Source of the DNA: an uncultured Nannocystaceae bacterium
Lineage (GTDB): Bacteria > Myxococcota_A > Bradymonadia > UBA7976 > UBA1532
Length of the DNA: 64,000 nucleotides
Reading direction: 5' to 3'
NCBI GenBank assembly: GCA_964384025.1
Contig: CAYLJJ010000001.1
Location: 103,601 to 167,600 of the forward strand
The notes beneath the pieces are model-generated. The model ran no database searches and was not told the origin of the DNA. It worked only from the letters and a program-made list of their open reading frames with translations. A program made the position numbers and the translations under genes. Position 1 is the stretch's first letter. Each line of letters opens with the position of its first letter. Of this stretch, positions 32,501 through 52,912 are shown piece after piece.

Positions 32501-34874
32501 TGGCTGTGTACCCACAGGCTCTGAAAGCTGCGATGAGATCGACAACAATTGCAATGGAGAGATTGACGAGACCTTCCAGTTCCTCACTGACCTCCAGAAC
32601 TGTGGCCGCTGCAATAACGTCTGTTCCTTTGAACATGCGCTCCCAGCCTGTGAGTTTGGACACTGTCGCCTTATGGAGTGTGACCTGGGGCATATCAACC
32701 TCAATGGCCTCTCCCAGGATGGCTGTGAATATGCTTGCCTCGTCGATGGAGCGGAGCGCTGTGATCTACAGGACAATGACTGTGATGGCGCTGTTGATGA
32801 AGATTTCGATCTCCAAACAGACACCATGAACTGCGGTCGATGTGGAGAGATCTGCTTCTTTGACAACGCTACCCCAGAGTGTTTTGGGGGAGAGTGCCGT
32901 ATCGAGAGTTGCCAAGCGGGCTTCTGGAATCTGGATGGTGACTCAGAGAACGGCTGCGAATATCCCTGCTTTGTTACGGAAAATGGTGTTGAGGTGTGTG
33001 ACGAGGCCGACAATGATTGTAATGGCTTCGTGGATGAGGGTTTTGATCTCAGCCGGGATCCAGAGCATTGTGGAGACTGCAATGCTGCCTGCGACCTGCC
33101 CCACGCGGTCTCTGGTTGTCGGGCGGGGAGCTGTGTGATCACGGAATGCGCTCCAGGTCGAGTGGATCTGAACTTGGAGCCGGAGGATGGCTGTGAGTAC
33201 GCCTGCACCCCCAGCAACGATGGTGAGGAACGCTGTGATGAGCAGGACAATAATTGTGATGGAGAGATCGATGAAGGCTTCGATCTCAGCAGCGACCCGC
33301 TCAACTGTGGCCTCTGTGGTATTGACTGTCGGCGCCCCAATGCTCTCGTAGAGTGTGCGCTTGGGAGCTGCCAATTTCTGGGCTGTGAGGAGCATTATTG
33401 GGATCTGGACGGCAACGCGGCCAACGGCTGTGAATATGCTTGCCAGCGACAGGGAGCTGAGGATCTCCCTGATCTGATGGGCCTGGACAGCAACTGTGAT
33501 GGCATCGACGGCGACATTCAACATGCCCTCTTTGTTTCTCCCGCTGGAGATGATGAAGGCCCTGGCAGCATGGAGCGGCCCCTCCGCAGCTTAGGCGTCG
33601 CTATTACCCAAGCCTACGCCGATGATGAGATTCAACAGGTCCTTGTCTCTCGGGGTGTTTACCGAGAGGCGCTCCAGCTCAAAAACGCCGTCCATCTCTT
33701 TGGAGGCTATGATCACAGCCAGCGTTGGCTTCGCGATCTTGAACTCTATGAGAGCCGTATCGAGAGCGATTCGATCCCTGTACAAGCGTTCCTCGTCGGT
33801 GAGGAGACCTACTTTCAGGGCTTCACCATTGAAGATATCCATCTGGGCGCAGAGGGGCGCTCCAGCTACGCAGTTCATATCTCCTTTGGGGATGGTTTGA
33901 TCCTGGAGGCTTGTCGCATCATCGCTGGACCTGGTGGTTTTGGAGCTGATGGCATCTCAGGCAGCAATGGAGCCAATGGAGCTCGTGGGGGCGATGGACA
34001 GAGTGGCTATAATGATGGCAGCAGTGGTGGCTATGGTGGTGCTGGAGCGAGCAGCAGCTGTGGGGCAACAGGAGGAAGGGGAGGACGAGGAGGCTACGGA
34101 AATAATAGAGGGAGTGGAGGAGGCTCAGGTGGTGGGATTATGGGGGCTCCGGGTGGACCGGGCGGTGCCCCAGGGACAGACAACTGCTGGTCTGGTTGCA
34201 GTCACTCCGATCCGGGCTGTGGCCCCGGCCAATCGGGCTCGGGCTGCACAGGCAATCTCCTCAGTGGAGGCTCTGGGGGCTCTGGACAACAGGGCGCTGG
34301 AGGAACGGGCGAGGGTCAACTGGATGGGCTCTACTGGGTTGGCTATGTGGGGCAGGATGGCGTTGATGGAGTACATGGCAGCGGCGGAGGTGGTGGGGGC
34401 GGTGGTGCTGGCAATGACTGCTGCTTAGATGATCGAGGCGGCGGCGGTGGGGGCGGCGGCGCGGGTGGCTGTGCTGGCACCCGAGGTCGTGGAGGTCACG
34501 CGGGTGGAGGAAGCTTTGGCGTCTTTATCTACCACGCCAACCCTGAGGTTCGAGACAACCTGATCATCACCGCTGGGGGGGGCTCTGGTGGTGACGGTGG
34601 CGATGGAGGTCTTGGTGGAAATGGTGGTTTAGGAGGCGCTGGCGGCCCTCGTCGAGATGATGGCAACCGTGGAGGTTCTGGGAGCAGTGGAGGTCGCGGT
34701 GGTCGTGGTGGCTGCGGTGGTGGTGGCGCGGGGGGTGTCTCCTACGGCATCTACCGCGTTCAGGATGCCGAGCCGATCCTCAGCGGCAACAGCTTTGAGA
34801 TCGGCCCTGGTGGTCAGGGTGGCAGCAGCTGTCGGCATCCAGGTGAAGAGGGAGACTCTGGAGAGCTGCTCTAG
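29595..34874 (+). CDS. giant secreted/lipoprotein: 13 tandem Cys-rich MopE-like modules, a DUF1565-like beta-helix N-cap and a Gly-rich C-terminal region
   Basis: Signal and lipobox LLSLFAC. 13 copies of a ~70-aa, 8-Cys module ExCDxxDNDCDGxxDEgfDLxxDxxNCGxCGxxCxfxxAxxxCxxGxCxxxxCxxGxwDLDgxxENGCEYxC. Then HALFVSPAGDDEGPGSMERPLRSLGVAITQAYADDEIQQVLVSRGVYRE (beta-helix cap-like). Then a ~330-aa GGxGG-rich region. Confidence 0.85.
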   Translation: MKLRLLSLLLLSLFACDEETSLSAADDQGETLPPGRDAAFNDNTPDAGEERGDTGLEPRLFGEPCQSPGDCLMGYCVPDPQGLRVCTQTCYDDESCPEQWECRPVNNTYPDTVFICVAERHVQCLPCEHDGHCGSGEDRCVSIGNGLYCARNCVTEACPEGHSCTEMEIDGEALSLCRPEGESCRPCRDQDGDGYGEGEDCAGFDCDDEDPLIYEGAPEVCDSKDNNCNALTDDAVAIPESVSCGQVGVCQGSIPRCVQGAWSCDYGSLYSEDDQRCDELDNDCDGSVDEDVDFEGDLENCGFCGEVCAFDNGFPDCEEGVCILGSCEEEYYDLDEEPENGCEYHCNLSNEGEEQCDGIDNDCDGEIDEETNLLGDSLNCGGCGQICAFDFAQAHCEEGRCLLAECEPEHWDLDRDPENGCEYICLFDAEEDLCDGVDNDCDGELEEDADLHGDPMNCGSCGHACDFEFASASCIEGVCVLLECDPGHWDLDAQAENGCEYICAFSPEDPEQCDGIDNNCDGQVDEEFNLDSDLLHCGACNQLCAPAFALPLCEQGRCLFESCQAGHYDLNGIQEDGCEYDCLPTESAEERCNLRDDDCDGLIDEGFDLSSDVSHCGVCEQICVYPNARPLCLEGACQMGACDQFFWDIDGLSENGCEYACVITQGGQEVCDEIDNDCDGLIDEGFDLNSDVEHCGLCDQGCAFQRGIPRCLGGECLLEACAEGYWDLDEDSDNGCEYACLLDGEEICDEIDNDCDGLIDEGFDLNIDLEHCGACEQPCEPLRAEGRCIEGQCTIDRCDSGSWDLDGEVESGCEYRCGESGEEICDQQDNDCDGLIDEGFDLEGDPRHCGVCNQRCVAEHAEPLCLQGDCQPGECEPNWHDLDGAPGCEYPCAPTLDGEEACDEIDNDCDGVVDEGYDLERDVDHCGACGQACRYPFGVGECQAGSCVLIACHHGYVDQNEDPNDGCEYGCVPTGSESCDEIDNNCNGEIDETFQFLTDLQNCGRCNNVCSFEHALPACEFGHCRLMECDLGHINLNGLSQDGCEYACLVDGAERCDLQDNDCDGAVDEDFDLQTDTMNCGRCGEICFFDNATPECFGGECRIESCQAGFWNLDGDSENGCEYPCFVTENGVEVCDEADNDCNGFVDEGFDLSRDPEHCGDCNAACDLPHAVSGCRAGSCVITECAPGRVDLNLEPEDGCEYACTPSNDGEERCDEQDNNCDGEIDEGFDLSSDPLNCGLCGIDCRRPNALVECALGSCQFLGCEEHYWDLDGNAANGCEYACQRQGAEDLPDLMGLDSNCDGIDGDIQHALFVSPAGDDEGPGSMERPLRSLGVAITQAYADDEIQQVLVSRGVYREALQLKNAVHLFGGYDHSQRWLRDLELYESRIESDSIPVQAFLVGEETYFQGFTIEDIHLGAEGRSSYAVHISFGDGLILEACRIIAGPGGFGADGISGSNGANGARGGDGQSGYNDGSSGGYGGAGASSSCGATGGRGGRGGYGNNRGSGGGSGGGIMGAPGGPGGAPGTDNCWSGCSHSDPGCGPGQSGSGCTGNLLSGGSGGSGQQGAGGTGEGQLDGLYWVGYVGQDGVDGVHGSGGGGGGGGAGNDCCLDDRGGGGGGGGAGGCAGTRGRGGHAGGGSFGVFIYHANPEVRDNLIITAGGGSGGDGGDGGLGGNGGLGGAGGPRRDDGNRGGSGSSGGRGGRGGCGGGGAGGVSYGIYRVQDAEPILSGNSFEIGPGGQGGSSCRHPGEEGDSGELL
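30415..33460 (+). repeat. 13 tandem ~210-bp coding repeats (diverged, roughly 60-70% identical by eye) inside the giant gene
   Basis: Recurrent blocks tgtgatgg..gacaatgactgtgatgg...ctgtgg..ggctgtgaatat at ~210-bp spacing. They generate many spurious overlapping ORFs on both strands. Confidence 0.8.
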
Positions 34875-38988: not shown

Positions 38989-39012
38989 ATAAAACTTAGA
39001 AATAACTCAAGA

Positions 39013-41544
39013 TTGCAACAAACAGTCCAAAAAAAGAGTGTTTTCCCATTGATAGAGCCTCGACCACTCAAATGCCCAGTTACAGGGTTGCTTATTCGGC
39101 GCGATCCTGCTTGGCAAGATATCCAGATCAATAAAGATTATTATGTCAGCTTTGAACTCATTGGAGAGTATATACTTCATACACAAATAAAGGGATTTTC
39201 TCCAAATCTAGATGTCGATCTTTTATATCAATACCGAGAAGTTGCGTTAATGGAATATTTAGGGGAGCCCTCTGATTTTATTGAGATAAAGAGATATGAC
39301 GACATCTATGGGCGTTCATCTAATGAGCAGATTAAGAAAAACATCTTTCATTTCATAAAAGACAACAATAGATGTCGTGGTTTTTTTGGATATGGTGCCA
39401 GATTATGGATTCGTAGTGTATTTAACCTGGCTTCTCGTCATTATAAAGTTAGATATCCTATCGAACAATATGGTTCTTACACTGAAGCGATTCAAGTTGC
39501 TCTGACAATTGAGAACAAACTCAGATTCGAAAAAGAATTTCGATCATTTATATTGCCTCATAAAACATATTTGGATGGAAATACTGGGTATGAGTTTTCT
39601 CAAATAAAAGACCATACTCTAATTATAAAACTAATCGGTTTTGTTAGTGATCCAAAGATCACTGAAGAGTTAATTCAGTTGCAGAGATCTGCTTACCAAG
39701 ACGGGCTTCTCAAGAAAGATAATAACTATCGGATTTTAGACTATTCTGAGTTTAGTGGAGCAACATGGAGTAGACGTTGGGCATATATAAATGGTCTCAA
39801 GAAATGTTATGAAGACTATGGCAAACCTAAAGCGATAGTATTTATTAGTACAAACAAATCTATGGAGTCATTTATCCGATCGATTGTTGCGTTTTTAGGC
39901 GCACCGTATTTCTTCGTTGAAAATTTTTCTGATGCGGTCAAAATTATCAGTGAACTTAAGTTTCATGGGTCTAAAAATGCCAAATCTGCACTTAAGCAGC
40001 TTACATATATTAGTCCACGTAGACTTTGGCGTCGTTGGTACAAGCTTCCTAAGCTTAGAGATCTTGAAGAGCTGTTTCTCAATTTAGGCCGAGTAGTTTG
40101 GGAACCTCAACCCTCCGAATTGCCTGATGTCAGCCCTGAACATCCCCTCGCTGATATATACTCTGCCCTACATCTTATCGTTCATGATGTAAAGCAGCTA
40201 TTGGATGAACGTCATAAACGCGAGAAAAAACTATCCCAAGTCCAAGATGAACTGATTCTCAGCAATCAGCGATTAGAAGAAGCTCTACAGCACTCAAAAG
40301 AGCTAACCCAAGAAGCTCAGGAAATGGCACATCAAGCCAAAGCCAGTAGCCAAGCAAAAAGCACATTTTTGGCCAATATGAGTCATGAAATACGCACTCC
40401 TATGAATGGAATCATCGGAATGTGTGCTTTGCTAAACGAATCGGAGCTAAATTCAAAACAACAAGAACAGCTAGGGATAATTCAACAAAGCTCTAAGCAC
40501 TTATTGAATTTAATCAACAGTATTCTGGATATTTCAAAACTTGAAGCGGGAAGGATGGAATTTGAACAACTTGATTTTCAACTTAAAGAGCAAATCAATG
40601 CACTTTTTAATACACTCTCTACCCAAGCAAAGAAGAAAGACATTCAGCTCCTGGCTGAGATCTCTCCTGATATTCCTAAGGCTTTGTTAGGAGATCAATC
40701 ACGTCTCCAACAGATCCTGCTCAATCTCTTGGGTAACGCGATCAAGTTCAGCCAAAATTGCTCGGTTCTGCTGCAAGTGGAGCTTCTCTCAGATCCTCAG
40801 AAAGAGGGGCCTATATCTCTACGCTTTGCGGTGAAAGATCAGGGTATCGGGCTCTCCCCAGAACAGCAGGAGCGCCTGTTCGAACCCTTCGTTCAAGCGG
40901 ACAGCTCCACTACCCGCCGTTATGGAGGGACCGGATTGGGCCTTTCTATCTGTCGCCACTTGGTGAAGCTATGGGGTGGCGAAATGGGAGTAAAGAGCAG
41001 CTTAGGAGAAGGCAGCGAGTTCTGGTTTGTGATCTCACTACAACAAGGCAAGGAGCAAGCGCGTACTCTTCCTGAGAGCAAGCAACTAAGCCAACTCAGA
41101 CAAGGGCCTCCCCTGCGGCTTCTCCTGGCTGAGGATAATCCTGTTAATCAGAGGGTTGCCCTGGGAATTTTGCGGCGCCTGGGCCATCAAGTCCAAGCTG
41201 TAAATGATGGCCTAGAAGCCCTGCAAGCCCTCAAAGAGGGCAGCTATGATCTGGTGCTCATGGACTGCCAGATGCCAAGGCTGGATGGCTATGAGGCCAC
41301 CAAGGCGATCCGCAGCGCTGGAGCCTCTTTAAGTGATCCACAGATCCCTGTGATCGCTATGACTGCCAACGCCATGACTGAGGATCGCCAGCGCTGCTTA
41401 GACGCAGGGATGAACGCCTATCTGAGCAAGCCAGTGAGGCCACAGTTGCTCGCTCAGGTTCTGGACCACTGGGGTAATAGAGCAGAGATCCAGAGGAGTG
41501 ACGGGGAACGACCGGATCCAGATATGGAGGGGTCGCCAAGTTGA
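39013..41544 (+). CDS. hybrid sensor histidine kinase / response regulator with a ~430-aa cytoplasmic N-terminal sensor region
   Basis: HisKA H-box [15 protein letters not shown]. HATPase N, G1 and G2 boxes ([27 protein letters not shown]). Receiver domain with [20 protein letters not shown] and a conserved Lys. No TM segments. Start codon is uncertain (TTG at 39013; no nearby ATG). Confidence 0.85.
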
Positions 41545-41625
41545 ATTTTATATACTCAGAAGCGCAGTTGATTGAATCCAGAGAGGGCAGAGTTTAGCAT
41601 CGGTGATCTTCGCTTCAGAGGGGAT

Positions 41626-42921
41626 ATGAGCGACAAACTACGTTTTGGAGAGATCCTGACTCGAGCGGGGGTCTTAGAGAGAACAGATCTGGAGAGCATC
41701 CTGTCTCTGATCGGAGACAGCGCGGTTGATCTGGGAGAGGTCTTGGTGAGCCGAGGTTTTTTAGATGAAGCCACGATGCTCAAGACCATCAGCAAAGCGC
41801 TCAATCTACCAAGCATAAGCCTAAAACATATCCAGCCAGATAAACGTGGTTTGGAGCTGATCCCCAGAGAGTTTTGTGCAGATCACTTCCTCCTGCCAGT
41901 GGAGGTAGAGCGTAGCCGCACTGGAGAGCATCTCCATGTGGCCATGGCCAACCCCTCTGATGTACGTGCCATCAAGCGCGTCACTCGAAAGGCCCGCCTT
42001 AGAATTCGTCCCCTGGTGGCCTCAGCTCGGGAGATTCGCGAGGCGATCCAACGCTGGTACGGTGGAGAGCTGGTTGAGGACTCCTCTCTGATCTTAGAGG
42101 AGAGCCTTAACTCCAGTATGGGAGGAGAAAACTCCAGTGAGAACCTCTTTGACTTTGGCCTCGGTGACCTTTCTCAATCCCTTCCAACAAAACAAGCCTC
42201 AACCCCTCCAAGAGCAAACTCTTCAAAGAGGAGAGGTGAAGAGGGGAGAATAACGCCCCCTGATCTGCCCAAGCAACGTAAGGCAGATCTGCTCAACGCT
42301 CTTGACTTAGAACCGGGATCCCAAACCTCCGAGGTCCAAGAGCGAGAGGAGCAAGGGTTTGGAACATTACCGAGGAGAGGCTCAAGACACCGTCCGCCTT
42401 CAGAGCGTCCTCCCTTTCGGAATTCAGAGCGTCCTCGCTCAGAGCGTCTGCCTCCTCTTCCGCGCCAGACCTCTCGAGAGCTTCCACCTCTCCCACCCAG
42501 TCTGCGAAGCGGCAATCAGAGGAAAGCCCCACGCAGCTCCTCAATTCCTCCTCAGAACATCAAACATAGCCGCGGCTCCTCAGCTCCTCCTCAGGGTGCT
42601 CAGGGTATCAAATACCACCAAAATTCAGCGCCGACCCTCGTTGAGGAGCGGGGCAGCGTTGAGGAACTCAAGGGGGTTTTGGATCGCTATGTCGCTGAGA
42701 TCAATGAGGAGAGCAGTGGAGATGGGCTGATCTCTCAGGAGTTGAAGCGTTACGGTCTTAAGAGATCATCTCCCGAGTCTGAGCTTTTCGCAGCTTTAGA
42801 GAACACCTTGAGTCGTGCTCAGGGTCCCAACGCTCAGCTTCTCCTCGCGCTGATCCGGCAACTGGCGCGCAGAGGCCTTTTGGATCTTCAGGAGCTGCTC
42901 TCGGATCTGCCCCCTCAGTGA
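41626..42921 (+). CDS. stand-alone MshEN / T2SSE_N domain protein (predicted c-di-GMP receptor) with a long Ser/Pro/Arg-rich disordered tail
   Basis: Tandem MshEN motifs RFGEILTRAGVLERTDLESILSLI, GDSAV, DLGEVLVSRGFLDEATMLKTISKA, then the rest of the GspE N-terminal fold. No ATPase domain. Start at ATG 41626 with GAGGGG upstream; the track begins at an upstream TTG. Confidence 0.7.
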   Translation: MSDKLRFGEILTRAGVLERTDLESILSLIGDSAVDLGEVLVSRGFLDEATMLKTISKALNLPSISLKHIQPDKRGLELIPREFCADHFLLPVEVERSRTGEHLHVAMANPSDVRAIKRVTRKARLRIRPLVASAREIREAIQRWYGGELVEDSSLILEESLNSSMGGENSSENLFDFGLGDLSQSLPTKQASTPPRANSSKRRGEEGRITPPDLPKQRKADLLNALDLEPGSQTSEVQEREEQGFGTLPRRGSRHRPPSERPPFRNSERPRSERLPPLPRQTSRELPPLPPSLRSGNQRKAPRSSSIPPQNIKHSRGSSAPPQGAQGIKYHQNSAPTLVEERGSVEELKGVLDRYVAEINEESSGDGLISQELKRYGLKRSSPESELFAALENTLSRAQGPNAQLLLALIRQLARRGLLDLQELLSDLPPQ

Positions 42922-43886
42922 AGCCTCCCCTCCTCTCTGTTGAAAAGCTCTCTCTGACGCTGGTCGGAGAGGAGAGAGGCCCCCTCTTGCTGCGCGATCT
43001 CAATTTCTCTTTAGAGCTTGGTGAAGCCCTGGCCTTGGTGGGCGAGAGTGGCTGCGGTAAGAGCTTAAGCGCCAAGGCCCTGCTTGACCTGTTACCTCCC
43101 ACCATCCAACGCCGCTCTGGGCATGTCCTGCTGGAGGGGGAGCCTCTTTTTGAAGTGAGCCCTGCTCGCCTCAGAAGCTTACGAGGAACACAGTTGGGCT
43201 TTGTCTCTCAGGATCCTCTCAGCGCCCTCAATCCGCTCTTCTCTGTTGGAGAGCAGATTGCTGAGCGCCTACGACACCACGGGGGCTTAAAAGCTCGGGC
43301 CGCTTGGGCTCGCGGGGTGGAGTTGATGGAGCAGGTGGGGATCTCCGCTCCCCAAGAACGAGCCCGAGCCTACCCCCATCAACTCTCAGGGGGGATGCGA
43401 CAGCGAGCGCTCATGGCCATCGCGCTTGCCTGTGATCCTCTCCTTCTCATCGCCGATGAGCCAACGACGGCTCTGGATGTCAGCGTCCAAGCCCAACTCA
43501 TGGAGCTGCTTAAAGAGGAGCGCAGGCGACGGGGTATGGCGCTGCTGCTGATCACCCATGATCTGGGCTTGGTCGCTCAATATGTTGATCGGGTCTTGGT
43601 GATGTACGCTGGAGAGGTGGTTGAAGCAGCTCCAGTTGAGGCCCTCTTCAGTGAGCCCCGACATCCCTACACCTGGGGTCTCCTCCAAGCGATCCCCAGG
43701 GAGGGCGGAGAACTTCACCCTATTCCGGGTCAAGTCCCCAACCCCAAAGATTATCCAGAGGGATGCCGCTTTGCTCCTCGCTGTAAACGTAGAGTTCCAG
43801 GATGTGCGCAGCCCCAGATCCTCGGAGAGGATCGCCATGCTCATCGCTGCCTGAGGCCCCTAAGCCCAGAGAGAGAGAGCCGCTGA
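42918..43886 (+). CDS. ABC transporter ATP-binding protein, Opp/Dpp D-type, with oligopeptide C-terminal extension
   Basis: Walker A GESGCGKS, signature LSGGMRQR, Walker B LLIADEPTTALD, C-terminal SEPRHPYTWGLLQAIP. 4-nt overlap with the MshEN gene. Confidence 0.85.
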   Translation: MKPPLLSVEKLSLTLVGEERGPLLLRDLNFSLELGEALALVGESGCGKSLSAKALLDLLPPTIQRRSGHVLLEGEPLFEVSPARLRSLRGTQLGFVSQDPLSALNPLFSVGEQIAERLRHHGGLKARAAWARGVELMEQVGISAPQERARAYPHQLSGGMRQRALMAIALACDPLLLIADEPTTALDVSVQAQLMELLKEERRRRGMALLLITHDLGLVAQYVDRVLVMYAGEVVEAAPVEALFSEPRHPYTWGLLQAIPREGGELHPIPGQVPNPKDYPEGCRFAPRCKRRVPGCAQPQILGEDRHAHRCLRPLSPERESR

Positions 43887-44821
43887 TGCTCCTCCAAGCG
43901 CTGAATCTTCAGGTCCACTACCCAGGCTCCAGAGGGAAGATTTTGCGGGCTGTCAACGGCGTCGATCTTGAGATTCGCTCTGGAGAGACTCTGAGCTTGG
44001 TGGGAGAGAGCGGCTGTGGCAAGTCCAGCTTGGGTCGCGCGCTCCTTAGGCTAGAGCCCCTGGCTGGAGGCCGCCTGATCGCCTTTGGAGAGGAGATCAG
44101 TCACCGCCCTGAGCGCCAACTCAAGGAGCTACGCAAGCGCAGCGCTTTGATTTTTCAAGATCCCTACGCCAGTTTAAACCCAAGGATGAGCCTCAACGCT
44201 GCCCTGTTAGAACCTCTTCAGATCCACCGTTGGGGAACGCGCAACCAACGTCGAGCCCGGGTAAAGCATCTCCTTGAGCGCGTGGGCCTCTCCCCTGAAC
44301 AGGGAGATCGTCGCCCTCATAGCTTCAGCGGTGGGCAGCTTCAACGCGCTTGTATCGCTCGAGCCCTGGCGCTGAACCCGGAGCTGTTGGTCGCCGACGA
44401 GGCTCTAAGTGCCCTGGATGTCAGCGTCCAAGCGGGGATCCTCAAGCTGCTTAAGGCTCTTCAGGAGGAGCGGAATCTCGCCTATCTCTTTATCGCCCAT
44501 GATCTCACGGTGGTTCGCCATATCAGCCACCGCGTTGCAGTGATGTATCTGGGGCGCATCGTAGAGGAGGCGCCTTGCGCGCAGCTCTTTTCAGATCCTC
44601 GACATCCCTACACTCAGGCCCTCTTGGCGGCGGTCCCACGCCCAGATCCTCAACACAGCTCAAAGCCTTTAACTCTGGTGGGTGAAGCACCCAGCCCCTT
44701 GGATCTTCCTCCCGGTTGCTCCTTTGCTCCTCGCTGTCCCAGAGCCTTGCCACGCTGCCGAGAAGGTTGCCCCTCTCTAAAGGCGGATGGGAGCCACAAA
44801 ACAGCCTGTTATCTCTGTTGA
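43886..44821 (+). CDS. ABC transporter ATP-binding protein, Opp/Dpp F-type
   Basis: Walker A GESGCGKSS, signature FSGGQLQR, Walker B LLVADEALSALD, C-terminal SDPRHPYTQALLAAVP. Start at ATG 43886 shares 1 nt with the upstream TGA; the track start at 43802 would overlap 85 nt. Confidence 0.85.
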   Translation: MLLQALNLQVHYPGSRGKILRAVNGVDLEIRSGETLSLVGESGCGKSSLGRALLRLEPLAGGRLIAFGEEISHRPERQLKELRKRSALIFQDPYASLNPRMSLNAALLEPLQIHRWGTRNQRRARVKHLLERVGLSPEQGDRRPHSFSGGQLQRACIARALALNPELLVADEALSALDVSVQAGILKLLKALQEERNLAYLFIAHDLTVVRHISHRVAVMYLGRIVEEAPCAQLFSDPRHPYTQALLAAVPRPDPQHSSKPLTLVGEAPSPLDLPPGCSFAPRCPRALPRCREGCPSLKADGSHKTACYLC

Positions 44822-44905: not shown

Positions 44906-45568
44906 ATGCTCAGCATGATCCTCATGGCCTCCCGGCGGCTTTTTCGTGGGGAGAACAGCGACGAGGAGTTAATGGAGAGGTTCCGAGACGGTGACACAAT
45001 GGCTTTTGAGATCCTGCTCAGTCGTCATGAGAGGGCCATCTTTAATTTCATCTACCGCATGATCAGAGATCGAGAGAAGGCTCAGGACCTCCTCCAAGAG
45101 ACCTTCCTCAGAGTGATCAAAAACAAACAACGCTATATCCCCAAGGCCCGCTTTACTACTTGGCTCTACACCATCGCTCGCAATCAGTGCATCGACGCCT
45201 TCCGCAAAGCGAAGCACAGAAGGCACGCCAGCCTGGACCAGCCCTATCGGGGAGAACCAGGAGGCCGTTCATTGATGGATAAGCTCCCCGGAAAAAGTGA
45301 GGATGCTCTCCAACGTAAAGAGGCTCAGGAGATCACTTTGCGCATCGAAGAGGCGCTCACTCATCTCAGCTCCGAGCAGCGTGAGGTCTTTGTGATGCGG
45401 CAGTTTCGCAACCTGCGCTTCAGGGAGATCGCTGAGATCGTGGGGGTCTCTGAGAACACCATCAAGAGCCGGATGCGCTATGCTCTAGAGCACCTTCGCC
45501 TTCAACTTGCTGATTATGCAGCAGAGCTGCCCAAGTCTCAGGTGATCCCCAAGAGGAGCCCAGCCTGA
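44906..45568 (+). CDS. ECF (sigma-70 group 4) RNA polymerase sigma factor
   Basis: Region 2 DLLQETFLRVIKNKQRY..TWLYTIARNQCIDAFRK. Region 4 FVMRQFRNLRFREIAEIVGVSENTIKSRMRYALEHLR. Confidence 0.85.
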   Translation: MLSMILMASRRLFRGENSDEELMERFRDGDTMAFEILLSRHERAIFNFIYRMIRDREKAQDLLQETFLRVIKNKQRYIPKARFTTWLYTIARNQCIDAFRKAKHRRHASLDQPYRGEPGGRSLMDKLPGKSEDALQRKEAQEITLRIEEALTHLSSEQREVFVMRQFRNLRFREIAEIVGVSENTIKSRMRYALEHLRLQLADYAAELPKSQVIPKRSPA

Positions 45569-46821
45569 TGAACTCTTCAATCGATGACAACCGCTTGTTG
45601 GAGCTGCTGTATGGAGAGTTGGAGGGGGAGGAGTTGCAGCATGTTGAAGCTTCTCTCAGTTCAGAGGAGCGTGATCTCCTCCAGAGCTGGGAGCAGATCA
45701 GAGAGGCCTGTATGTTGCTCCCTGAGTTGGAGCCAGATCTTCAGGCCCACTACAGCCTTCTCCGCGCCTCTCGCGCCTCTCCAAAGCCGCGCTTCTCGTT
45801 CTTTTTTTCGTTTTCGCTCAAGCATCTCTCTTTGATCCCTGGCGCAGCGACCTTGGGGCTGCTCATCTTAGCCCTTGGGACCTTCTATCTCCTCAATCAA
45901 GAGGAGAGCGGCAGAGGTGAGCTAAGCTTAGATCATTTTACCGCTCAAAAGCCGCCTCTTCCCCTGCCCACTGAGCCGCCAAAGCTTGCTCTAAAGAGGA
46001 GCCCGAAGGGCTCTGTAAAGAGCGCAGAGTTTAAAGAGAAGTCCCCAGCAAAGCAGATCCCTGAGGCGCCGTTGGAGAGAGTTGATAAGCCTGCGCTTAA
46101 AGCTGAAGCCAGAGAGAAGGAGAACCTCTCGGAAGCCAAAGAGTCAGCCAAGGTGCTCTCTATCGAGATAGAGACCCCCGCTTTAGAGAAGAAGCTCGAA
46201 AGAGCCAGAGAGCCTCGAAAAGCTGGCAAACGGAGACGCGCCAGAAGATCCCCGAGCACCAAGGCAAAGTTCCCAAAGACGCGGCCACAAAAAGCCAGAC
46301 CAAAGCAAGCCCTTCCAGTGAGGGCTCCTGAGCCCTCGCCAAAATTTGAACTTCAGCCCCCTATTCCACCCCCTTCTCCTCCAGAACCTCCTATATTGGA
46401 CTCCCTCCCAGAGTCATCCAGAGTTCGTTTTGCGCTCCCTCCCCCTCCCTCTATAGATGATGGGCTTTCAGGCAAAACCTCCGATTCAGCTCCTCAAGTT
46501 GAAGAGGTACTTCCCCCTCGAAACCTCGATGAAATCGGACCTCAAGCTGTCTCGATCGAGAGCCCCAACTCCTCAAAGCTGCTGCGGCAGGCACAAAGAG
46601 AGCGCTCTCGGGGGGATCATCACTCTGCGGTAAAGAGCTACGAGGCCTTTCTCTCTAGATATCACGAGCACCCAGCTCTCCAGAGGGTCCTTTTTGAGAC
46701 CGCTGAGAGCTATGAAGCTTTAGAGCAGCGGGAGCGAGCCCGACAGCTTTATCGTTTGGTTCAGGAAGCGGGGGGGGTGTTAGGAGATAAGGCCAAGGAG
46801 CGCTTAGAAGCCCTACAATAA
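45568..46821 (+). CDS. anti-sigma factor (single-pass membrane protein with a periplasmic Lys/Pro-rich region and a TPR-like C-terminus)
   Basis: 1-nt ATGA overlap with the sigma gene. N-terminal anti-sigma-like LLELLYGELEGEEL. TM helix GAATLGLLILALGTFYLL. C-terminal TPR-like SYEAFLSRYHEHPALQR. Confidence 0.65.
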   Translation: MNSSIDDNRLLELLYGELEGEELQHVEASLSSEERDLLQSWEQIREACMLLPELEPDLQAHYSLLRASRASPKPRFSFFFSFSLKHLSLIPGAATLGLLILALGTFYLLNQEESGRGELSLDHFTAQKPPLPLPTEPPKLALKRSPKGSVKSAEFKEKSPAKQIPEAPLERVDKPALKAEAREKENLSEAKESAKVLSIEIETPALEKKLERAREPRKAGKRRRARRSPSTKAKFPKTRPQKARPKQALPVRAPEPSPKFELQPPIPPPSPPEPPILDSLPESSRVRFALPPPPSIDDGLSGKTSDSAPQVEEVLPPRNLDEIGPQAVSIESPNSSKLLRQAQRERSRGDHHSAVKSYEAFLSRYHEHPALQRVLFETAESYEALEQRERARQLYRLVQEAGGVLGDKAKERLEALQ

Positions 46822-46828
46822 GCACAAC

Positions 46829-47551
46829 TCAGCGATCTTCAGGGAGGCTCTCCAAGAGCGCTCGGTATTTGATAGTTTTACGACCTGGGTTGGGAAAAGA
46901 GGTCTCTTTTAAGATCTCCAAAACACAGGAAAAGAGACCCTCTGGAGGGGGCTGCTTGGATTGAAAACCGGCTGAGAGGAGGCGCCCTGGCCGGGCGATA
47001 TAGGCGACCATGTGAAAAGGGGCTCGAAACTTATAACTCTGGCGACAGCCTTCTATCTCTCGTCGTTTGCTCCTGAGGGCTCGATAGCCCCAACTCTCTT
47101 CGACTTGTTGAGAGAGCCGAGTTCCTGCCAAGTTTCGATGGATTGGGTAGAGGAAGAGAGCTGCTGCTTGGCCGCTGGGTTTGGGAAACTCCAAGAAGCG
47201 CCCCGCTTGAACTAAGCACTCCTCAATAGCCAAGCTCCCCATGCTGGAGCGTTCTACATGGACCCGCTCCACCTGCCCCTCGACGTTCACCAAAAAACGC
47301 AGATGGCTGACGCCGCTGATATAGGCTGCTCCCGCCCTGAGACAGTTATCAAAGCCTGCACGGTGAGCCTCCATTACCACCTCGACTTGCTCCTGGGAGA
47401 GCTGCCCATAGCTGCTCTTCAGATCCTCCTCTCTTTGAATCTCCCTTAAGCGACTGTCTGGAGGGGGGCGATGCCCCGAGCCGGTAAAATCATCTGAGGG
47501 GAGGGGCCCACAGGCGAGAAGCAGAAGGGCGGTGAGCAAGCTGTATTTCAT
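46829..47551 (-). CDS. hypothetical lipoprotein
   Basis: Lipobox LLLLACGP. Likely the last gene of the long minus-strand operon. Confidence 0.5.
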   Translation of the reverse strand: MKYSLLTALLLLACGPLPSDDFTGSGHRPPPDSRLREIQREEDLKSSYGQLSQEQVEVVMEAHRAGFDNCLRAGAAYISGVSHLRFLVNVEGQVERVHVERSSMGSLAIEECLVQAGRFLEFPKPSGQAAALFLYPIHRNLAGTRLSQQVEESWGYRALRSKRREIEGCRQSYKFRAPFHMVAYIARPGRLLSAGFQSKQPPPEGLFSCVLEILKETSFPNPGRKTIKYRALLESLPEDR

Positions 47552-47593: not shown

Positions 47594-48124
47594 TCAAAGA
47601 TCCCAAATCCACTTGGAGCGCTGATAGGGCTTGGCTCTCTGGCGTTTCTTTTTACGACGCGCTGCCCGTTTGCGGGCCCTCTCCTTGGCTTTGCGCTTCT
47701 CCTCTTTTGGATCGATCTTGGGGGGAGGCTCTACTGTAGCTTGAACTCGATCTCCTAAGCTGATAGCGAGGGCCTCAGGGCTGCTCCTCTTCTTTCGAGA
47801 CTTTCTCCTGCGTTTTCTCTTTTTAAGACCATCATAGACGATCTCGGCGATGAGAAGCTTGCCTCGAATCTCCTTGATCTTAAGCTGGCCCACGTTGACT
47901 CGATACTGGCTCTCAGCCTCGCCGGGGATGTTTCGCTCTCGCAGCACAGTGAAGCGCCCTCCCAAGAGCAACTTCATCTGCTCCTCGGGTCCCTTTAGGC
48001 GCTTTAAAAAGACCTGTCGAGTTGCGGTCACAAAGCGGCCTTTAAGCTCTACAGGTCGGTGGATGTTGATCACCTCCAGCTCAAAACTGATCAGGCTGAG
48101 GAGGAGAGAGAACAGAGGGCTCAT
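47594..48124 (-). CDS. hypothetical protein with a highly basic Lys/Arg-rich C-terminal tail
   Basis: 4-nt overlap with the cyaA stop. N-terminal hydrophobic segment. C-terminus KKRKRRRKSRKKR...KRKAKERARKRAARRKKKRQRAK. Confidence 0.45.
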   Translation of the reverse strand: MSPLFSLLLSLISFELEVINIHRPVELKGRFVTATRQVFLKRLKGPEEQMKLLLGGRFTVLRERNIPGEAESQYRVNVGQLKIKEIRGKLLIAEIVYDGLKKRKRRRKSRKKRSSPEALAISLGDRVQATVEPPPKIDPKEEKRKAKERARKRAARRKKKRQRAKPYQRSKWIWDL

Positions 48125-51100
48125 GGGCTCTCCCTGAAGGGGCTTCGGCTGGTCACGCTGCGGATCTTCTCTCCACGAAAGACCAAGAGAGCTCGCTTCA
48201 AAGCGTTCTCATAGAGGTCGATGAGGCGCAGGTGCTTGACCACGCCTCGATCAACCCCCTTTTGACGATGCGCCGGTCCAAAGTTGACTACCGAGGCGTC
48301 GATCTCGAAGAAGTCTGCATCGTAAGGGCTGCGTCTCCTCATCAACTCAAGCAGGGTCTCGTAGACAAAGGCGCGACCATGCTCCTGGGCGCTGATGCGT
48401 CGCTGAGCGATCTGAAACCAGAGCCCAGCGCGCCCCTTCTGGAGATCCCCACCCAACCAAAGCTCCTCTCTGGAGCTGCGAGCTTGCATCAAAGCGTCCA
48501 GGACCCTCTGAGTATCATCCAGAGGGCTGGCCTGCTCTCCAGGGCGCTGTGGCCCCCTCAGATGAAAGATACGGAGCTGGCGGCGCAGCTCTCGGGTGTT
48601 ACGCACAGACTCTCGGAGTCGCAAGATGATGCGACGCACCAGGGTCAATAGGATCCCCTCAAGATCTTGAGGGGGGAGTTGACGGTGATAGATGCGTTGG
48701 ATCTCATCACAGATAAAGATTTGACCCCGTTGAGGGGAGAGCCGCCAAGCGATAAGGACCCCTGGCTGAAGCTCATCGAGGCGACGCTTTACCAGAAGCC
48801 GTAGATCTCCCAGGTTCGCTGAGAGGCGATCGATCTTCAACTCCTGGAGGTCATAGCCACAGTTGCCCAGAATACGACAGACCCCTTTGAGAGAGCGGAG
48901 CCCGCAGAGAAGATCACCATCAGCGCTGCGATAGATCACTTGGAAACGCCCCCCCACCTCATAGACAAAACCCCGACTGTGGCGCGGCTTGAGAGGCTCT
49001 ACTAGGACCCAGCTGCTCTCCCGCAGTAGTTCAGTGATGCGGTTGCGCACCGCAGGCAGCATACGGTCTGAGGGCGCCAAAACCACGACCTCTTCTATCG
49101 CCGCCTGAGGTTCAACTTCAGCGAAGAGAGACTTAAGGGCTGAGGGCACCGCCTGAGGCCCTGAGTGGCGATGGCAGAAGACCTCCCCCCAACTATTGAG
49201 GCTGAGGACAGAGACTTCGCTGAGTTGGCAGCGTCGTTTGCGACCATAGTTGAGGATGTCCCAGTTTTCAGGGAGATAAAAGACGCCTGCCTGCTCACTG
49301 GCGTCACTGAGGGTTCTGGGGCGATCAAAGTTCACCAGCACCGCCACCCTCAAGATTGAGCGGCGCTCTAGAAAGCGGCCAGGGGCGATACTGAAGGGAT
49401 CAGGACTCTCAAAGATCCTCTGGAAGCGCTGAAGCATCCCCCGCAACTCATTGGGGCTGACACGCGAGATGGGGCTGATCAGGGCTACCACCGTACCGGA
49501 GTGATAGAGGCCATTAAAGGTGAGCCAACCGGCGATCTCTGCGATGGTTGAGGCGCTCCAGATCGGCTCCCCTCGGCTGAGGATGCGCTCTCTCTTTAAC
49601 TCCCGATGGATCTCCCAGCGTCGCACAGGGAGGGCTTCAGGGACCTCTAAGATGACCAAGCGATCTTCACAGCGGGGTTCCTTGAGGAAGTAGGTAAAAA
49701 GATGACGGATCTTGCCTGGCTCTCGCCCAAAGACCGCGAAGAGACGACGCCCCAGGATGGTGATATCCTTCTCGTTGATATGAACGGTGGCCTCTCTGGC
49801 TCGGCGAATCAGGTGGCGGTAGAGCCCCAACATAAAGCTGCGGATCTGTTGCCCAATCTCGTCCACCTTCTCAGCCGACCAGCTTTCCAAGCTGTCCAGC
49901 TCCTCAAGCAGTTCGCGATCCCACCCCCAACGCTCGATATAGGCGCGCATCACTTGAAAGCGCCGCATAAAGAGCTTGCGCTCAGAGCGCTCCTTGGAGA
50001 GCTTAAGCCCTACCTTGAGATAGAAGCACTTCTGCACCAGACGGAAGGCTTTCCAGTCCCCTCGATCAGCAAAATATCCACTGATAGCGTCAAAGAGGAG
50101 CACATAGGGATCGGTGTACTGAGGACCATCCTCACCCTGAAAGACGCGCTCTTTGAGCTGGTCACAGAGCAGCCTGGGTTTTGGATCATCCAGATAACGC
50201 AGCAGCAAAGCCATCTTGAGCAAGCTCTTAAAAGGACTCCTCAAGCTCTTGTTGATTTGCCAAAGCGCAGCGCCAAAGAACTCTCCACGATCAATCTCAG
50301 CGATAAAGCCCAGATCCACCACTGAGATGCCAGGGGGGAGCTGAGCCCTTTCAAGAGCATGAAGCACACGCTGATAGCCCTGCGCGCTGACCCCTACAGG
50401 TACCAGCCACCAAGCGGGGATATCTCCACTGATCAGCACCGCCGTACGATAAAACTCCTCCTTTAAAAGCTTGCCTTGAGCGCTGCCTGATGAGTCTACA
50501 TCCTCCTCCGCTCCCCCGAAGTCATTGGCTCGGCTGCGCTTTAGATCCACCAGGAAGAAGTGTGCATCGAGGCCTCGCTTCTGAACCCAGGCTTCAATCT
50601 TCTGGATACGCTCTTTAAGAGCTCGCTGCTGTTGCAGAGAGAGGCGGTCAAGCTCAACAACGACCCAGTAATCAACATCACTCTTACCCGATTGACCGAT
50701 GGTGCCCACGCTGCCCATCGCCAAAAGAGAGAGGATATGCGGTCTCTGAGGAGGCTGCTCAGCCAGGGCCCCTCGTCGAGAGAAGAAGCCCTCAGCTGCG
50801 TGGCGAATGCTGAGGTTGAACTCAAAGTTACGGATTCCGTGGGGCGCTCCGGCGACATAGCTTGGCAGGTGGGGGAGATTTTGGTGAAGGAGGTAGGGGA
50901 TCACCGAAAAGAGATTGCGCTCCTTGGGCTTGAGCGCCTGATATAGATAAGCCAGTTTCATCTTGGTGAAGCGCAGATAGGCTTGTAGATGCTTGCCCAG
51001 CTGCTCTATCCCCAGACCTGAGTCCATGCTGCGACTGGACTGAAGCATCTCCTTAAAATAGGGCTTCGCGAATGATAGCCCCTCCTCGGGACCTTCCTCC

Positions 51101-51255
51101 TTCTGCTCCAGGGTGATCGGCCCCGAGTACTCCAGCTTAAGGGGGGTAGCTTCCTCCGCGATCCAAGCCCCAGCAAACTCCTCCTTGCTTAGGCCCTGGA
51201 GCCAGCCGGCTACAGAGTCAGTTGCCTGTGGAGGAGGAAGCTTGGGCAAGATCAC
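48121..51255 (-). CDS. cyaA: class I adenylate cyclase (CyaA family, enterobacterial type)
   Basis: Alignable by eye to E. coli CyaA. [21 protein letters not shown] matches [43 protein letters not shown] matches [20 protein letters not shown] (catalytic Asp pair). FFLVD matches FFLID. [21 protein letters not shown] matches [40 protein letters not shown] matches [42 protein letters not shown] matches CFYLKVCEKLSRER. GTG start forms a GTGA overlap with the fliW stop; the N-terminus is ~75 aa longer than E. coli, and Met68, Met75 and Met108 are possible alternative starts. Confidence 0.85.
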   Translation of the reverse strand: [1044 protein letters not shown]

Positions 51256-51722
51256 CTCAGAGAGATGGAGCGGGCCTCAGAGCTTTGCCCTGGTTGCCCC
51301 TCCTTTAGAACATAATATTTGACCGGGTATCGCTGATCCCTCAGAACAAGCTGCATCCCCAGCCGCTTCTCCAAGTTAAAGATCAAGGGAGCCAAGAGGT
51401 TGGCGCTCATCTCTCTCACCTCAGCAGGGATGGTCATCAACACCGAGACCACCAAGTCCTCTTCCTCTCTCGGCTCGATCACCTGAACCTCTGAGCGTTT
51501 CAGAGAGATATGGTAGTCAGGCTTAAAAAAGAGGGGATCAGTGACTACAAAAGCCAGCTGAGGCTCATCCACAGACTGCAACCATTTGAAGGGTGTACCC
51601 TCGTGATCAACGATCACATAACGACGCTGTTTAGCAAACCCCAGGAGCCCCATAGGGAAATAGTAGAGTTGAGCCTCATCGATCTCCAGGGAGCCAAAGC
51701 GACTGGTCTGAATATTCATCAC
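51252..51722 (-). CDS. fliW: flagellar assembly factor FliW (CsrA antagonist)
   Basis: FliW signature FGSLEIDEAQLYYFPMGLLGF...YVIV..EGTPFKWLQSVDEPQLAFVVTDP. 4-nt overlap with csrA. Confidence 0.85.
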   Translation of the reverse strand: MMNIQTSRFGSLEIDEAQLYYFPMGLLGFAKQRRYVIVDHEGTPFKWLQSVDEPQLAFVVTDPLFFKPDYHISLKRSEVQVIEPREEEDLVVSVLMTIPAEVREMSANLLAPLIFNLEKRLGMQLVLRDQRYPVKYYVLKEGQPGQSSEARSISLR

Positions 51723-51958
51723 CCCTCCTCCTGTGGAGCAAAGAGATCGCTGATCGCCTCTAGGCTGTTGCTGTCTGGTGCCAAGGCTTTGAGATTCTCC
51801 TCTTGGATCTTCTTATACAGCTCTTCTCGGCAGACATAGATATCTCTGGGGGCGATGATCCCCAGGCGGATCTGTCGCCCTCTGATCTCTTTGACGATGA
51901 TTTTGATATCATCTCCAATACAGATCGCCTCCCCGAGCTTGCGGGTCAGTGTCAGCAC
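51719..51958 (-). CDS. csrA: carbon storage regulator CsrA
   Basis: MLTLTRKLGEAICIGDDIKIIVKEIRGRQIRLGIIAPRDIYVCREELY is the classic CsrA fold sequence with the flagellar-type C-terminal extension. Confidence 0.9.
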   Translation of the reverse strand: MLTLTRKLGEAICIGDDIKIIVKEIRGRQIRLGIIAPRDIYVCREELYKKIQEENLKALAPDSNSLEAISDLFAPQEEG

Positions 51959-52006
51959 ACTCCTCCTCCCAAAGATAGTTGGATCTGCCCAGGATACACA
52001 GATTCC

Positions 52007-52894
52007 TCAGCGCAAGTAATTGAGCAGGGAGACCTCAGCCATGATGCGCCCGCTGAGAGCCATCGTTGCCTGAAGCGCATTCTCACTGAGGCTCAACTCC
52101 GAGATGATTCGGCTGAGATCAGCGTCTCGAAGATCGGAGAGTTCCTCAGGAAGGCGCTCACTCAAGGTCTCATGAACCGCCCGAGCTGCCTCCAAGCTTT
52201 GAAGCTGTGTGCCCACCCGAGCGCGGGCCTTAATCTGCTGCTCGATCCCCAACTCCAAATTCTCAAGCCCTGTCTGCATCTCTCCATTATCGCGGTCTGA
52301 GATCGCCTCGGCCAAGCTCTTTAAGTCCTCAAAGAGGTTGCGGGTGTCGGCGGTCCCATCTCCAAAGGCCAGCCCTCCAGGGAGGCTGCTCTCTAGGTGC
52401 AGCCTCTCGCCCACCTCTAGGCGCGGCGCGCGAAGATCTCCCTGGTAGGAGAAGTCATCGGCATAGGGTGGATCGCCGCTGCCTCCACCAAAGATCCACT
52501 GCTCTCCAGAGCGGCTGTTGGCCAAAGCTCTAAGATGCTCTCTCAAGGCCAAGATCTCTCCTGAGATGATCTCTGCATCTTCAGGGAGGAGGCTGGCGTT
52601 GATCCCCTGGATCGCCAGCTCTTTGGCGCGATAGAGGGCCTCGTTGGCCTCCCCCAACTTGGCGTCTGAGAGCCCTAAGGTGGCCGTGGCGCGATCCTGA
52701 GCCCTGCCATGCTGGACCCAACGGCTGCGCTGGCTCTCTAGGGCTCGAACACGCAGCGCCCCCAGAGGATCATCTGAGGGTTTGTGGATCCGATGACCGG
52801 AGAGGATCTGCTCCTGAAGCTTCGCGCTTCGCTCACGATGGCGCTCAATCCGACGACTGGGTTCAAGATAGCGGCTGCGCTCAGTGATCCTCAT
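52007..52894 (-). CDS. flgL: flagellar hook-associated protein 3, FlgL
   Basis: Flagellin-like N-terminal helix (RITERSRY...) and C-terminal ...ALQATMALSGRIMAEVSLLNYLR. Position downstream of flgK. Confidence 0.8.
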   Translation of the reverse strand: MRITERSRYLEPSRRIERHRERSAKLQEQILSGHRIHKPSDDPLGALRVRALESQRSRWVQHGRAQDRATATLGLSDAKLGEANEALYRAKELAIQGINASLLPEDAEIISGEILALREHLRALANSRSGEQWIFGGGSGDPPYADDFSYQGDLRAPRLEVGERLHLESSLPGGLAFGDGTADTRNLFEDLKSLAEAISDRDNGEMQTGLENLELGIEQQIKARARVGTQLQSLEAARAVHETLSERLPEELSDLRDADLSRIISELSLSENALQATMALSGRIMAEVSLLNYLR

Positions 52895-52912
52895 TTTATT
52901 TCCTCAGGGCCT

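Follow-up and report, generated by a model that had tools for sequence, protein, structure and literature searches.

An MshEN-fold protein with a degenerate cyclic di-GMP motif is encoded in a conserved operon with Opp-type ATPases in uncultured Myxococcota

Introduction

In the N-domains of MshE (Vibrio cholerae), PilB (Myxococcus xanthus and Geobacter) and PilF (Thermus thermophilus) a four-helix N-subdomain, carrying two 24-residue hairpin motifs with a 5-residue spacer between them, is followed by an alpha/beta C-subdomain, and domains of this MshEN (GSPII) type are tallied in genomes as receptors for cyclic di-GMP (c-di-GMP). The reference pattern for motif I is RLGxx(L/V/I)(L/V/I)xxG(L/V/I)(L/V/I)xxxxLxxxLxxQ, with a relaxed terminal class [QNKRYWST], and motif II has a guanine-stacking first residue, Arg (Lys, Pro, Asn and Leu being tolerated), and a terminal Gln (Wang et al., 2016). 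The joining of MshEN to a domain of unknown function was already pointed out in the same study; such proteins (FrgA and PA3740) are therefore known, as are detached genes for ATP-binding cassette (ABC) ATPases. Here we describe a locus in a 64,000-nt stretch of DNA from an uncultured Nannocystaceae bacterium (contig CAYLJJ010000001.1; the whole stretch is referred to as the window) in which the gene for a 431-aa protein with an N-terminal MshEN-fold domain is followed by genes for two Opp/Dpp-type ABC nucleotide-binding subunits, OppD and OppF. A first-pass annotation, made from the window alone, had suggested that c-di-GMP gates a module supplying or regulating the two ATPases, either for a transporter encoded elsewhere or for a non-transport role. 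Our best reading, to which we assign a probability of about 0.45, is that the ATPases belong to a split importer and that the MshEN-fold protein is a clade-specific accessory that docks on OppDF and has a second, Opp-independent partner.

Results

The MshEN-fold gene forms a conserved operon with oppD and oppF

The three genes follow one another on the forward strand (Table 1) in the order, and with the overlaps, first described for them: the stop codon of the MshEN gene and the start codon of the OppD-like gene overlap by 4 nt (GTGA), and the OppF-like gene starts either at 43886, as placed by the gene caller (1-nt overlap with the oppD stop), or at the alternative 43883 (4-nt overlap). Homologues of the 431-aa protein fall into about 60 clusters at 90% identity, all from metagenome-assembled genomes (MAGs) of Myxococcota, ‘Myxococcales’ and Bradymonadia. 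Synteny was examined in 18 informative related genomes, all of them MAGs of one clade. In 13 of the 18 oppD comes directly after the MshEN gene, with oppF next wherever the contig continues, and the 4-nt overlap between the MshEN stop and the oppD start was found in 7 of the 11 cases examined. The genes upstream differ between the window and two relatives (L008 and L009), with the trio retained in each. A control set of 80 generic oppD loci was taken from a scan with OppD (39–52% identity), to be read as a control and not as a test of association; an OppC-like permease gene is present in 61 of these loci, mostly adjoining oppD, and an MshEN gene in none (0/80). We conclude that the MshEN, oppD and oppF genes did not come together by chance but make up a real operon, which is conserved.

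In the relatives the 5′ part of the ancestral block reads PP2C ... tetratricopeptide repeat (TPR) lipoprotein, LolA-like protein (DUF2092/DUF4292), MshEN, oppD, oppF, extracytoplasmic function (ECF) sigma factor and anti-sigma factor, and the 3′ part continues with PBP4 (opposite strand), a substrate-binding protein (SBP), a ResA/AhpC-like protein, a NagZ-like glycoside hydrolase of family 3 (GH3; opposite strand), oppC and oppB (opposite strand). The five genomes that have no oppDF also have no SBP gene between PBP4 and AhpC and no oppCB after GH3. On a tree of the N-domain, built on 160 residues, four of these five form one clade (92 of 100 bootstraps), which the fifth joins in 0 of 100, so that oppDF must have been lost at least twice. 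As the MshEN gene has outlived oppDF on at least two independent occasions, its function cannot consist solely of service to OppDF. In most relatives an ECF sigma gene is close to the MshEN gene, either next to it or separated from it by oppDF: it follows at about 20–150 nt in all five genomes without oppDF, and the ECF pair stands after oppF in at least nine genomes with oppDF, where the 76–240 nt gap after oppF has, by eye, a −10-like element that seems to be the sigma gene's own. In L008 the pair is inverted. In two genomes (L011 and L013) the MshEN-oppD-oppF trio is retained, again with the 4-nt overlap, and no ECF sigma gene lies downstream.

The ATPases and the parts of a split importer

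Both ATPases are of the Opp/Dpp/Nik type, with ABC_tran and oligo_HPY domains and intact catalytic motifs. In all family loci examined (11 OppD, 10 OppF) the Walker A motif, the Q-loop region, the signature (LSGGM in OppD), the Walker B motif with its catalytic Glu and the H-loop are intact, and a four-Cys C-terminal tail is kept in both proteins; judged by these motifs OppD and OppF are catalytically intact. They could be assigned to none of the named equivalogs, as every NCBIfam cut-off for OppD, OppF, DppD, DppF, NikD/E, GsiA, YejF and SapD/F is missed; the best models for OppD are OppD and DppD, and the best scores are 279.5 against 575 for the OppD subfamily and 366.7 against 408 for the DppF-type subfamily. 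A protein search with OppD was dominated by fused double-ATPase proteins of the YejF/GsiA type and was uninformative. At window positions 43197–43202 (OppD residues 94 and 95) the family has ‘GF’ just before the Q-loop motif (LGFVSQDP); among 69 generic OppD proteins ‘SM’ (ISMIFQDP) predominates there. This pair is included in the 12 scattered family-specific positions of OppD, which are not interpretable without a structure of the complex. The region of OppD near the Q-loop usually faces the coupling helix of the permease.

The absence of an adjacent permease or SBP gene, which the first-pass annotation had remarked on, proved to extend well beyond the operon. No BPD_transp_1 or SBP_bac_5 domain was found among 40 large open reading frames (ORFs) spread over the window, tblastn of the whole window with the SBP, OppB and OppC proteins encoded in six canonical operons gave no match, and no permease or SBP was present in the 9 kb further upstream. 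That this is an ordinary opp locus, flanked by genes for a permease or SBP, is thus ruled out for the window by these domain scans, the tblastn search and the upstream extension. Adjacent genes for the cognate permease and SBP are a typical and not a strictly defining feature of Opp/Dpp/Nik ATPase genes.

The missing parts can be seen in one relative, L005, the only genome to show the whole importer set and the one that bears out the idea of a transporter encoded elsewhere. Here an oppB-oppC pair that lacks ATPase genes, together with an SBP_bac_5 gene, lies 4–8 kb downstream of oppF, with the SBP gene between oppBC and oppDF and a GH3 gene following oppB-oppC, so that two orphan halves (oppBC without ATPases, oppDF without permeases) stand about 7 kb apart. 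These complementary halves, together with the joint absence of the Opp parts from lineages without the ATPases, speak for OppDF as motors that belong to a split importer and are not free-standing. The SBP of L005 is closest to the NikA and DppA models. The surrounding block (L005 15676–21431, with equivalents in L002, L004, L018, L021, L022 and L132) encodes a PBP4-type D,D-carboxy/endopeptidase, a ResA/AhpC-like thiol oxidoreductase and a NagZ-like GH3 protein, and the SBP and oppCB genes are interleaved in it solely where oppDF exist. The PBP4/GH3 block hints at import of cell-wall peptides, but the SBP is nearest to the two models just named.

An MshEN fold without the polar ligand contacts

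The N-terminal domain was assigned to the MshEN family as first proposed. Pfam MshEN (PF05157, T2SSE_N) matches the 431-aa protein with 66.1 bits (E 2.8e-18, cut-off 23.1), and the T2SSE secretion ATPase domain (PF00437) is absent from it by Pfam; the profile searches that had been suggested for the locus also returned oligo_HPY in both ATPases. Of the NCBIfam models, that for PilB matches over its own positions 2–149 alone (61.6 bits against a cut-off of 675), and that for NfrB matches the N-domain weakly. Residues 1–150 have sequence matches in the PDB to PilF (1e-14), M. xanthus PilB (4e-13) and V. cholerae MshE (2e-10), and are modelled by AlphaFold2 (AF2) with a predicted local distance difference test score (pLDDT) above 92 throughout. 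A Foldseek search with the domain retrieved the MshEN/GSPII fold only, with TM-scores of 0.66–0.80 overall, 0.72–0.80 for MshE, XpsE-N and PilF GSPII-A, and a probability of 1.00 to the N-domains of MshE, PilF and XpsE; the best structural match is the GSPII-A domain of PilF (TM-score 0.80, root-mean-square deviation 2.5 Å), and that to XpsE-N has a TM-score of 0.74.

The two motifs were then placed in register with residues 9–61 of V. cholerae MshE, in which Arg9 corresponds to Arg6 of the window protein, Gln32 to Ile29, Arg38 to Asp35 and Gln61 to Ala58. The 5-residue spacer and the 53-residue unit as a whole are present. Motif I (RFGEILTRAGVLERTDLESILSLI) keeps the Arg, the Gly and most of the hydrophobic positions, one of them being substituted by Thr12, and its terminal Gln is replaced by Ile29, which falls outside the relaxed class; motif II (DLGEVLVSRGFLDEATMLKTISKA) begins with Asp35 and has Ala58 at its terminal position. 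What had been read as a textbook tandem MshEN pair is accordingly sound as to fold, spacer and in-register alignment, but both terminal Gln residues and the motif-II Arg have been replaced.

These replacements are not peculiar to the window protein. In an alignment of 60 homologues Asp35, at the motif-II Arg position, is invariant (60/60), position 58 is Ala in 49, and at position 29 most members have a hydrophobic residue and 6 have Gln. When relaxed, the pattern (Wang et al., 2016) fits motif I of 12 of the 60 members, the window protein not being one of them, and motif II of none. The Gly/hydrophobic skeleton of both motifs is near-invariant across the same homologues (R6, F7, G8, L11, G15, L22, L36, G37, L40, G44, M51 and I55). 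NCBIfam NF053729, a 53-position model of the motif that binds c-di-GMP, scores 30.4 bits, under its cut-off of 38. In the four-member clade that has lost oppDF (L004, L018, L021 and L022) the equivalent of residue 29 is Arg or Gln and not hydrophobic, which brings these proteins closer to the canonical c-di-GMP motif than the oppDF-linked members.

A disordered linker and a family-specific C-terminal domain

The remainder of the protein consists of a disordered linker and a helical C-terminal domain. A Ser/Pro/Arg-rich disordered segment of about 230 aa with SERP-like repeats had been noted before; the disorder, the composition (P 14%, S 13%, R 12%) and the repeats (SERP twice, plus SERL and SREL) are as described, but the segment is about 180 aa long. 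No tandem repeats were found in it at the DNA level. Its length is highly variable in the family (374–655 aa for whole proteins, fragments excluded), and the family consensus has conserved islands within it: FDFxxxDLS, LPPLPPxLR and a basic RRxRR-like patch.

The conserved C-terminal helical domain, which the first-pass annotation did not mention, has near-invariant residues (at least 90%) at D366, L409, L413, G417, D420 and L424, and ends in a single MshEN-like half motif, LLxLIRQLARRGLxDxxELLxxL. A profile of this domain run against 1.84 billion representative proteins gave 40 matches, of which 36 are members of the same family or fragments of them; the other 4 are of the repeat type and fall in long, unrelated proteins. 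Assignment to a known fold or family was not possible, as there was no match in Pfam, no fold match in the PDB and no other domain architecture among the representatives. The MshEN-fold protein gave no match to any known domain of the anti-sigma or anti-anti-sigma kind. An OppDF-binding element was sought as a segment conserved where oppDF are present and lost in both of the lineages without them, and none emerged.

Neighbouring genes and other features of the window

The coordinates of the operon, its domains and its neighbours are collected in Table 1.

Table 1. Coordinates in the window of the operon, the domains of the MshEN-fold protein and the flanking features.
Feature	Position	Strand	Basis or remark
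MshEN-fold protein gene, 431 aa	41626–42921	+	Start agrees with the conserved family N-terminus MSDKLRFGEI
MshEN/GSPII-fold domain, residues 1–150	41626–42075	+	24-residue motifs at residues 6–29 and 35–58; spacer 30–34
Pro/Ser/Arg-rich disordered linker, residues 166–344	42121–42657	+	pLDDT mostly below 60
Family-specific C-terminal helical domain, residues 345–431 (87 aa)	42658–42918	+	60-sequence alignment (A1); five helices in the AF2 model
OppD/DppD-type ABC nucleotide-binding subunit, 322 aa	42918–43886	+	ABC_tran 95 bits, oligo_HPY 73 bits
OppF/DppF-type ABC nucleotide-binding subunit, 312 aa from 43883	43883–44821	+	ABC_tran 98 bits, oligo_HPY 71 bits
Tentative sigma-70-type promoter, TTGAAT-17 nt-TAGCAT	41572–41600	+	About 25 nt 5′ of the MshEN start codon; read by eye
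Hybrid histidine kinase	39013–41544		Upstream of the MshEN gene
ECF sigma factor	44906–45568	+	Sigma70_r2 and r4_2 (Pfam); NCBIfam NF009166 220 bits, cut-off 206
Anti-sigma-like membrane protein	45568–46821	+	Start overlaps sigma stop; layout read by inspection

The flanks are as previously called, with a hybrid kinase before the operon and an ECF sigma factor and membrane-bound anti-sigma-like protein after it, according to Pfam, NCBIfam and inspection. The latter protein begins with a short cytoplasmic stretch, followed by one hydrophobic segment and a region rich in Pro and Lys, and has a TPR part at its C-terminus; it has weak matches to TPR, BamD and YbgF, and its N- and C-termini are homologous to those of proteins encoded after the ECF sigma gene in relatives. 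The anti-sigma domain models of Pfam and NCBIfam did not match it, and we treat it as a putative anti-sigma factor. At an equivalent place upstream of the MshEN gene most related loci have, by eye, promoter-like elements (TTTCGC, about 17 nt, then TAACAT, TAAGAT, TAGAAT or TAGCAT). A scan for terminators and promoters gave nothing exceeding the shuffled background, the promoter of Table 1 going unreported because it matches 8 of the 12 consensus positions, and no riboswitch, other RNA or tRNA was found near the operon. The N-terminal (sensor) half of the kinase gene (39000–40500) has 35–43% G+C against about 56% for the window, and relatives carry the TPR and LolA-like genes at the position of the kinase, so that the kinase gene and a GNAT gene may have come to lie upstream of the operon later, by insertion or rearrangement.

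Further away, in the stretch 48121–60096 (− strand), a 1044-aa adenylate cyclase of class I (CyaA type) is encoded directly upstream of FliW and CsrA, followed by a flagellar block on the same strand (FlgL/flagellin-like, FlgK, FlgN, FlgM, FlgJ-like, FlgI, FlgH, FlgA, FlgG and FlgF). Flagellar genes and an enterobacterial-type cyclase are unexpected for a Myxococcota-like genome. A 240-aa protein (46829–47551, − strand) has the AgmX/PglI C-terminal ‘myxo_SS_tail’ domain and is GltG/TonB_C-like, which supports affiliation with the Myxococcota. Genes for cyclic-nucleotide signalling are dense (− strand), namely a class-III cyclase with HAMP (7187–9043), a protein with two cyclic nucleotide (cNMP)-binding domains (12410–14428) and the class-I cyclase (48121–51255); no GGDEF, EAL or PilZ gene was seen among the window ORFs scanned. 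A 1759-aa protein (29595–34874, + strand) carries repeated MopE-type putative metal-binding motifs (PF11617, 165 bits). Finally, the gene for a radical-SAM/SPASM protein (18927–20378, + strand) adjoins an unannotated 323-aa ORF and an O-methyltransferase gene (21334–22320, − strand), and the stretch 18927–22320 may be a small peptide-modification cluster.

Discussion

We propose that the three genes constitute one operon that would be ancestral to a clade of uncultured Myxococcota/Bradymonadia-like bacteria, and that OppD and OppF are probably ordinary active subunits of an Opp/Dpp/Nik-type importer with scattered genes, its SBP and two permeases being encoded apart from the ATPases (downstream of oppF, as in L005, and presumably outside the window here). 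The MshEN-fold protein would be a cytoplasmic accessory made up of a degenerate-motif GSPII/MshEN domain, a flexible linker with short motifs and a unique C-terminal helical domain, and is likely to be co-produced with OppD by way of the overlapping stop and start codons. By analogy with the N-domains of GspE/XpsE and Xanthomonas PilB, which bind no nucleotide and dock those ATPases to partners, it is most likely a protein–protein adaptor or regulator, and it would dock on the OppDF dimer where the importer exists. A second, Opp-independent partner has to be supposed because the protein persists after loss of the importer, and the ECF sigma/anti-sigma pair is the leading candidate for it. What the sequences show is the gene content, the fold, the degenerate motif, the structure of the operon, the synteny and the pattern of losses; physical contact of the protein with either OppDF or the sigma pair, like any ligand that it may have, is what we infer from them.

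Several observations weigh against this proposal. The MshEN-fold protein is equally conserved in genomes without oppDF, and no segment of it is lost in both of the lineages that lost these genes, so that its sequence bears no trace of an OppDF-binding element. Since the 18 genomes come from one clade, the shared gene order may reflect inheritance and not function. The window genome's own permeases were not located in the window or the 9 kb upstream of it. Compact operons commonly have stop codons that overlap the next start, irrespective of any interaction between their products. Docking of the adaptor on OppDF is, for its part, a prediction from the comparison of genomes.

Some of the same facts would follow if the MshEN-fold protein belonged functionally to the ECF sigma/anti-sigma envelope module, for instance as a cytoplasmic modulator of the complex of the two, and oppDF were passengers that lie in between as part of a scattered importer locus and make no contact with it. 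The close spacing of the sigma gene behind the MshEN gene in every genome that lacks oppDF, the ECF pair after oppF in many of those that have them and the full conservation of the protein once oppDF are lost all speak for such a role, as do the conserved upstream neighbours in the relatives, which are envelope proteins (the TPR lipoprotein and the LolA-like DUF2092/DUF4292 protein). We nevertheless regard it as rather unlikely, because the trio persists with its 4-nt overlap in L011 and L013 with no sigma gene behind it, the sigma pair is inverted in L008, the sigma gene appears to have a −10-like element of its own after oppF, and the MshEN-fold protein has no detectable domain of the anti-sigma or anti-anti-sigma kind.

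A different model, in essence the one first suggested for the locus, has the N-domain working as a c-di-GMP receptor through which the protein turns OppDF on or off with the level of the nucleotide. The operon coupling of the MshEN gene to oppD is genuine, and the near-invariant skeleton and the 5-residue spacer speak for it too. Nor is a perfect motif required: imperfect motifs can still bind, and MshE mutants in charged residues lost less than fivefold in affinity (Wang et al., 2016), while PilF GSPII-B, whose first motif residues are Lys and Leu, still has an affinity of 6 nM. On the other hand, in the same GSPII-B domain each Gln-to-Glu change lowers affinity by 77- to 158-fold and the double mutant has lost binding altogether, and in the family of the window protein both terminal Gln residues are replaced in most members and the motif-II Arg in all; the relaxed motif I fits a minority, and motif II no member, of the 60. 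PilF GSPII-A, which experimentally fails to bind c-di-GMP and is the nearest structure to the window domain, departs from the motif at these three positions as well (H33, S39 and R62). Its failure to bind depends also on the N-cap and an elongated helix alpha1 besides the motif, and because these contribute, its behaviour is not simply transferable to the window family. A textbook c-di-GMP receptor is ruled out by the motif deviations, the NF053729 score below cut-off and the comparison with the PilF literature. Physiological binding of c-di-GMP by the MshEN-fold protein is doubtful on the strength of its sequence, and gating of OppDF by the nucleotide is unlikely, given that the three polar ligand contacts have been replaced family-wide.

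More speculatively, the adaptor might couple the ATPase activity of the importer to the ECF sigma/anti-sigma switch, so that import flux (for example of cell-wall-derived peptides) is reported to envelope-stress transcription, and the altered MshEN pocket, in which Asp35 is invariant and the Gln contacts are gone, might read a ligand other than c-di-GMP; we consider this improbable. A non-transport role, in which OppDF and the MshEN-fold protein energise or regulate some other process, has a precedent in Escherichia coli SapD, an OppD-type ATPase that is also required for Trk potassium uptake, and would suit the absence of a permease within 10 kb of oppDF in the family genomes examined (L005 excepted) and the few family-specific residues near the OppD Q-loop, but it is very improbable in view of the complementary orphan halves of L005 with the SBP between them, the joint absence of oppDF, SBP and oppCB from all five genomes without the ATPases and the complete oligo_HPY tail typical of transporter subunits, and is not needed to account for the data.

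If the split importer with its docking accessory is the right explanation, the protein would be the first regulator of an ABC transporter to have the MshEN/GSPII fold, and would carry the ‘N-domain in trans’ logic of secretion ATPases over to a different class of ATPase. A literature search for MshEN linked with oligopeptide ATPases found no paper. The novel elements are a C-terminal domain confined to the family, a loss under selection of the polar contacts to the ligand, and a conserved operon in which an MshEN gene is joined to those of Opp-type ATPases. As a conserved, selected variant of MshEN exists without these contacts, genome counts of MshEN receptors can mislead. The joint absence of the parts of a split importer also offers a route for matching orphan ABC ATPases with the permeases that they serve. 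In practice these results reach only so far, the family being restricted to a few uncultured lineages of Myxococcota.

Among known systems, the possible logic of the MshEN-fold protein resembles that of EIIA-Glc, the soluble regulator that acts on the ABC nucleotide-binding subunit MalK, and that of RsiG-WhiG, in which RsiG is a c-di-GMP-dependent anti-sigma factor: by functional analogy, a cytoplasmic protein could dock on the C-terminal regulatory part of an ABC ATPase or act as a nucleotide-dependent partner in a sigma/anti-sigma system. Neither has any sequence or fold relationship to the MshEN-fold protein. In domain layout the closest relatives are FrgA of M. xanthus and PA3740 of Pseudomonas aeruginosa, in which an MshEN domain without a secretion ATPase is joined to an uncharacterised domain, and E. 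coli NfrB, in which MshEN, again without a secretion ATPase, is partnered by a glycosyltransferase; the window protein differs from all three in having a C-terminal domain without relatives outside its own family, and no operon with ABC ATPases has been reported for those proteins. With MshE, PilB and PilF it shares the two subdomains and paired hairpin motifs described above, but where these have a T2SSE/PilT-type ATPase domain it has the disordered linker and the unique helical domain. It is like PilF GSPII-A and the N1 domain of XpsE/GspE in that these are MshEN-fold domains that act through protein contacts without binding c-di-GMP, and differs from XpsE in retaining more of the Gly/Leu skeleton. 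The ATPases, for their part, share domains and motifs with OppD and OppF of the Opp/Dpp/Nik importers, including MppA-OppBCDF of E. coli, through which peptides of the cell wall are recycled, and the link between Opp and peptidoglycan recycling is echoed in the relatives, where genes for the PBP4-type D,D-peptidase and the NagZ-like GH3 protein adjoin those for the SBP and oppCB. They differ from generic Opp/Dpp/Nik systems, most of which have a permease gene in the same locus as the ATPase genes, in that their genes are detached from those of the permeases.

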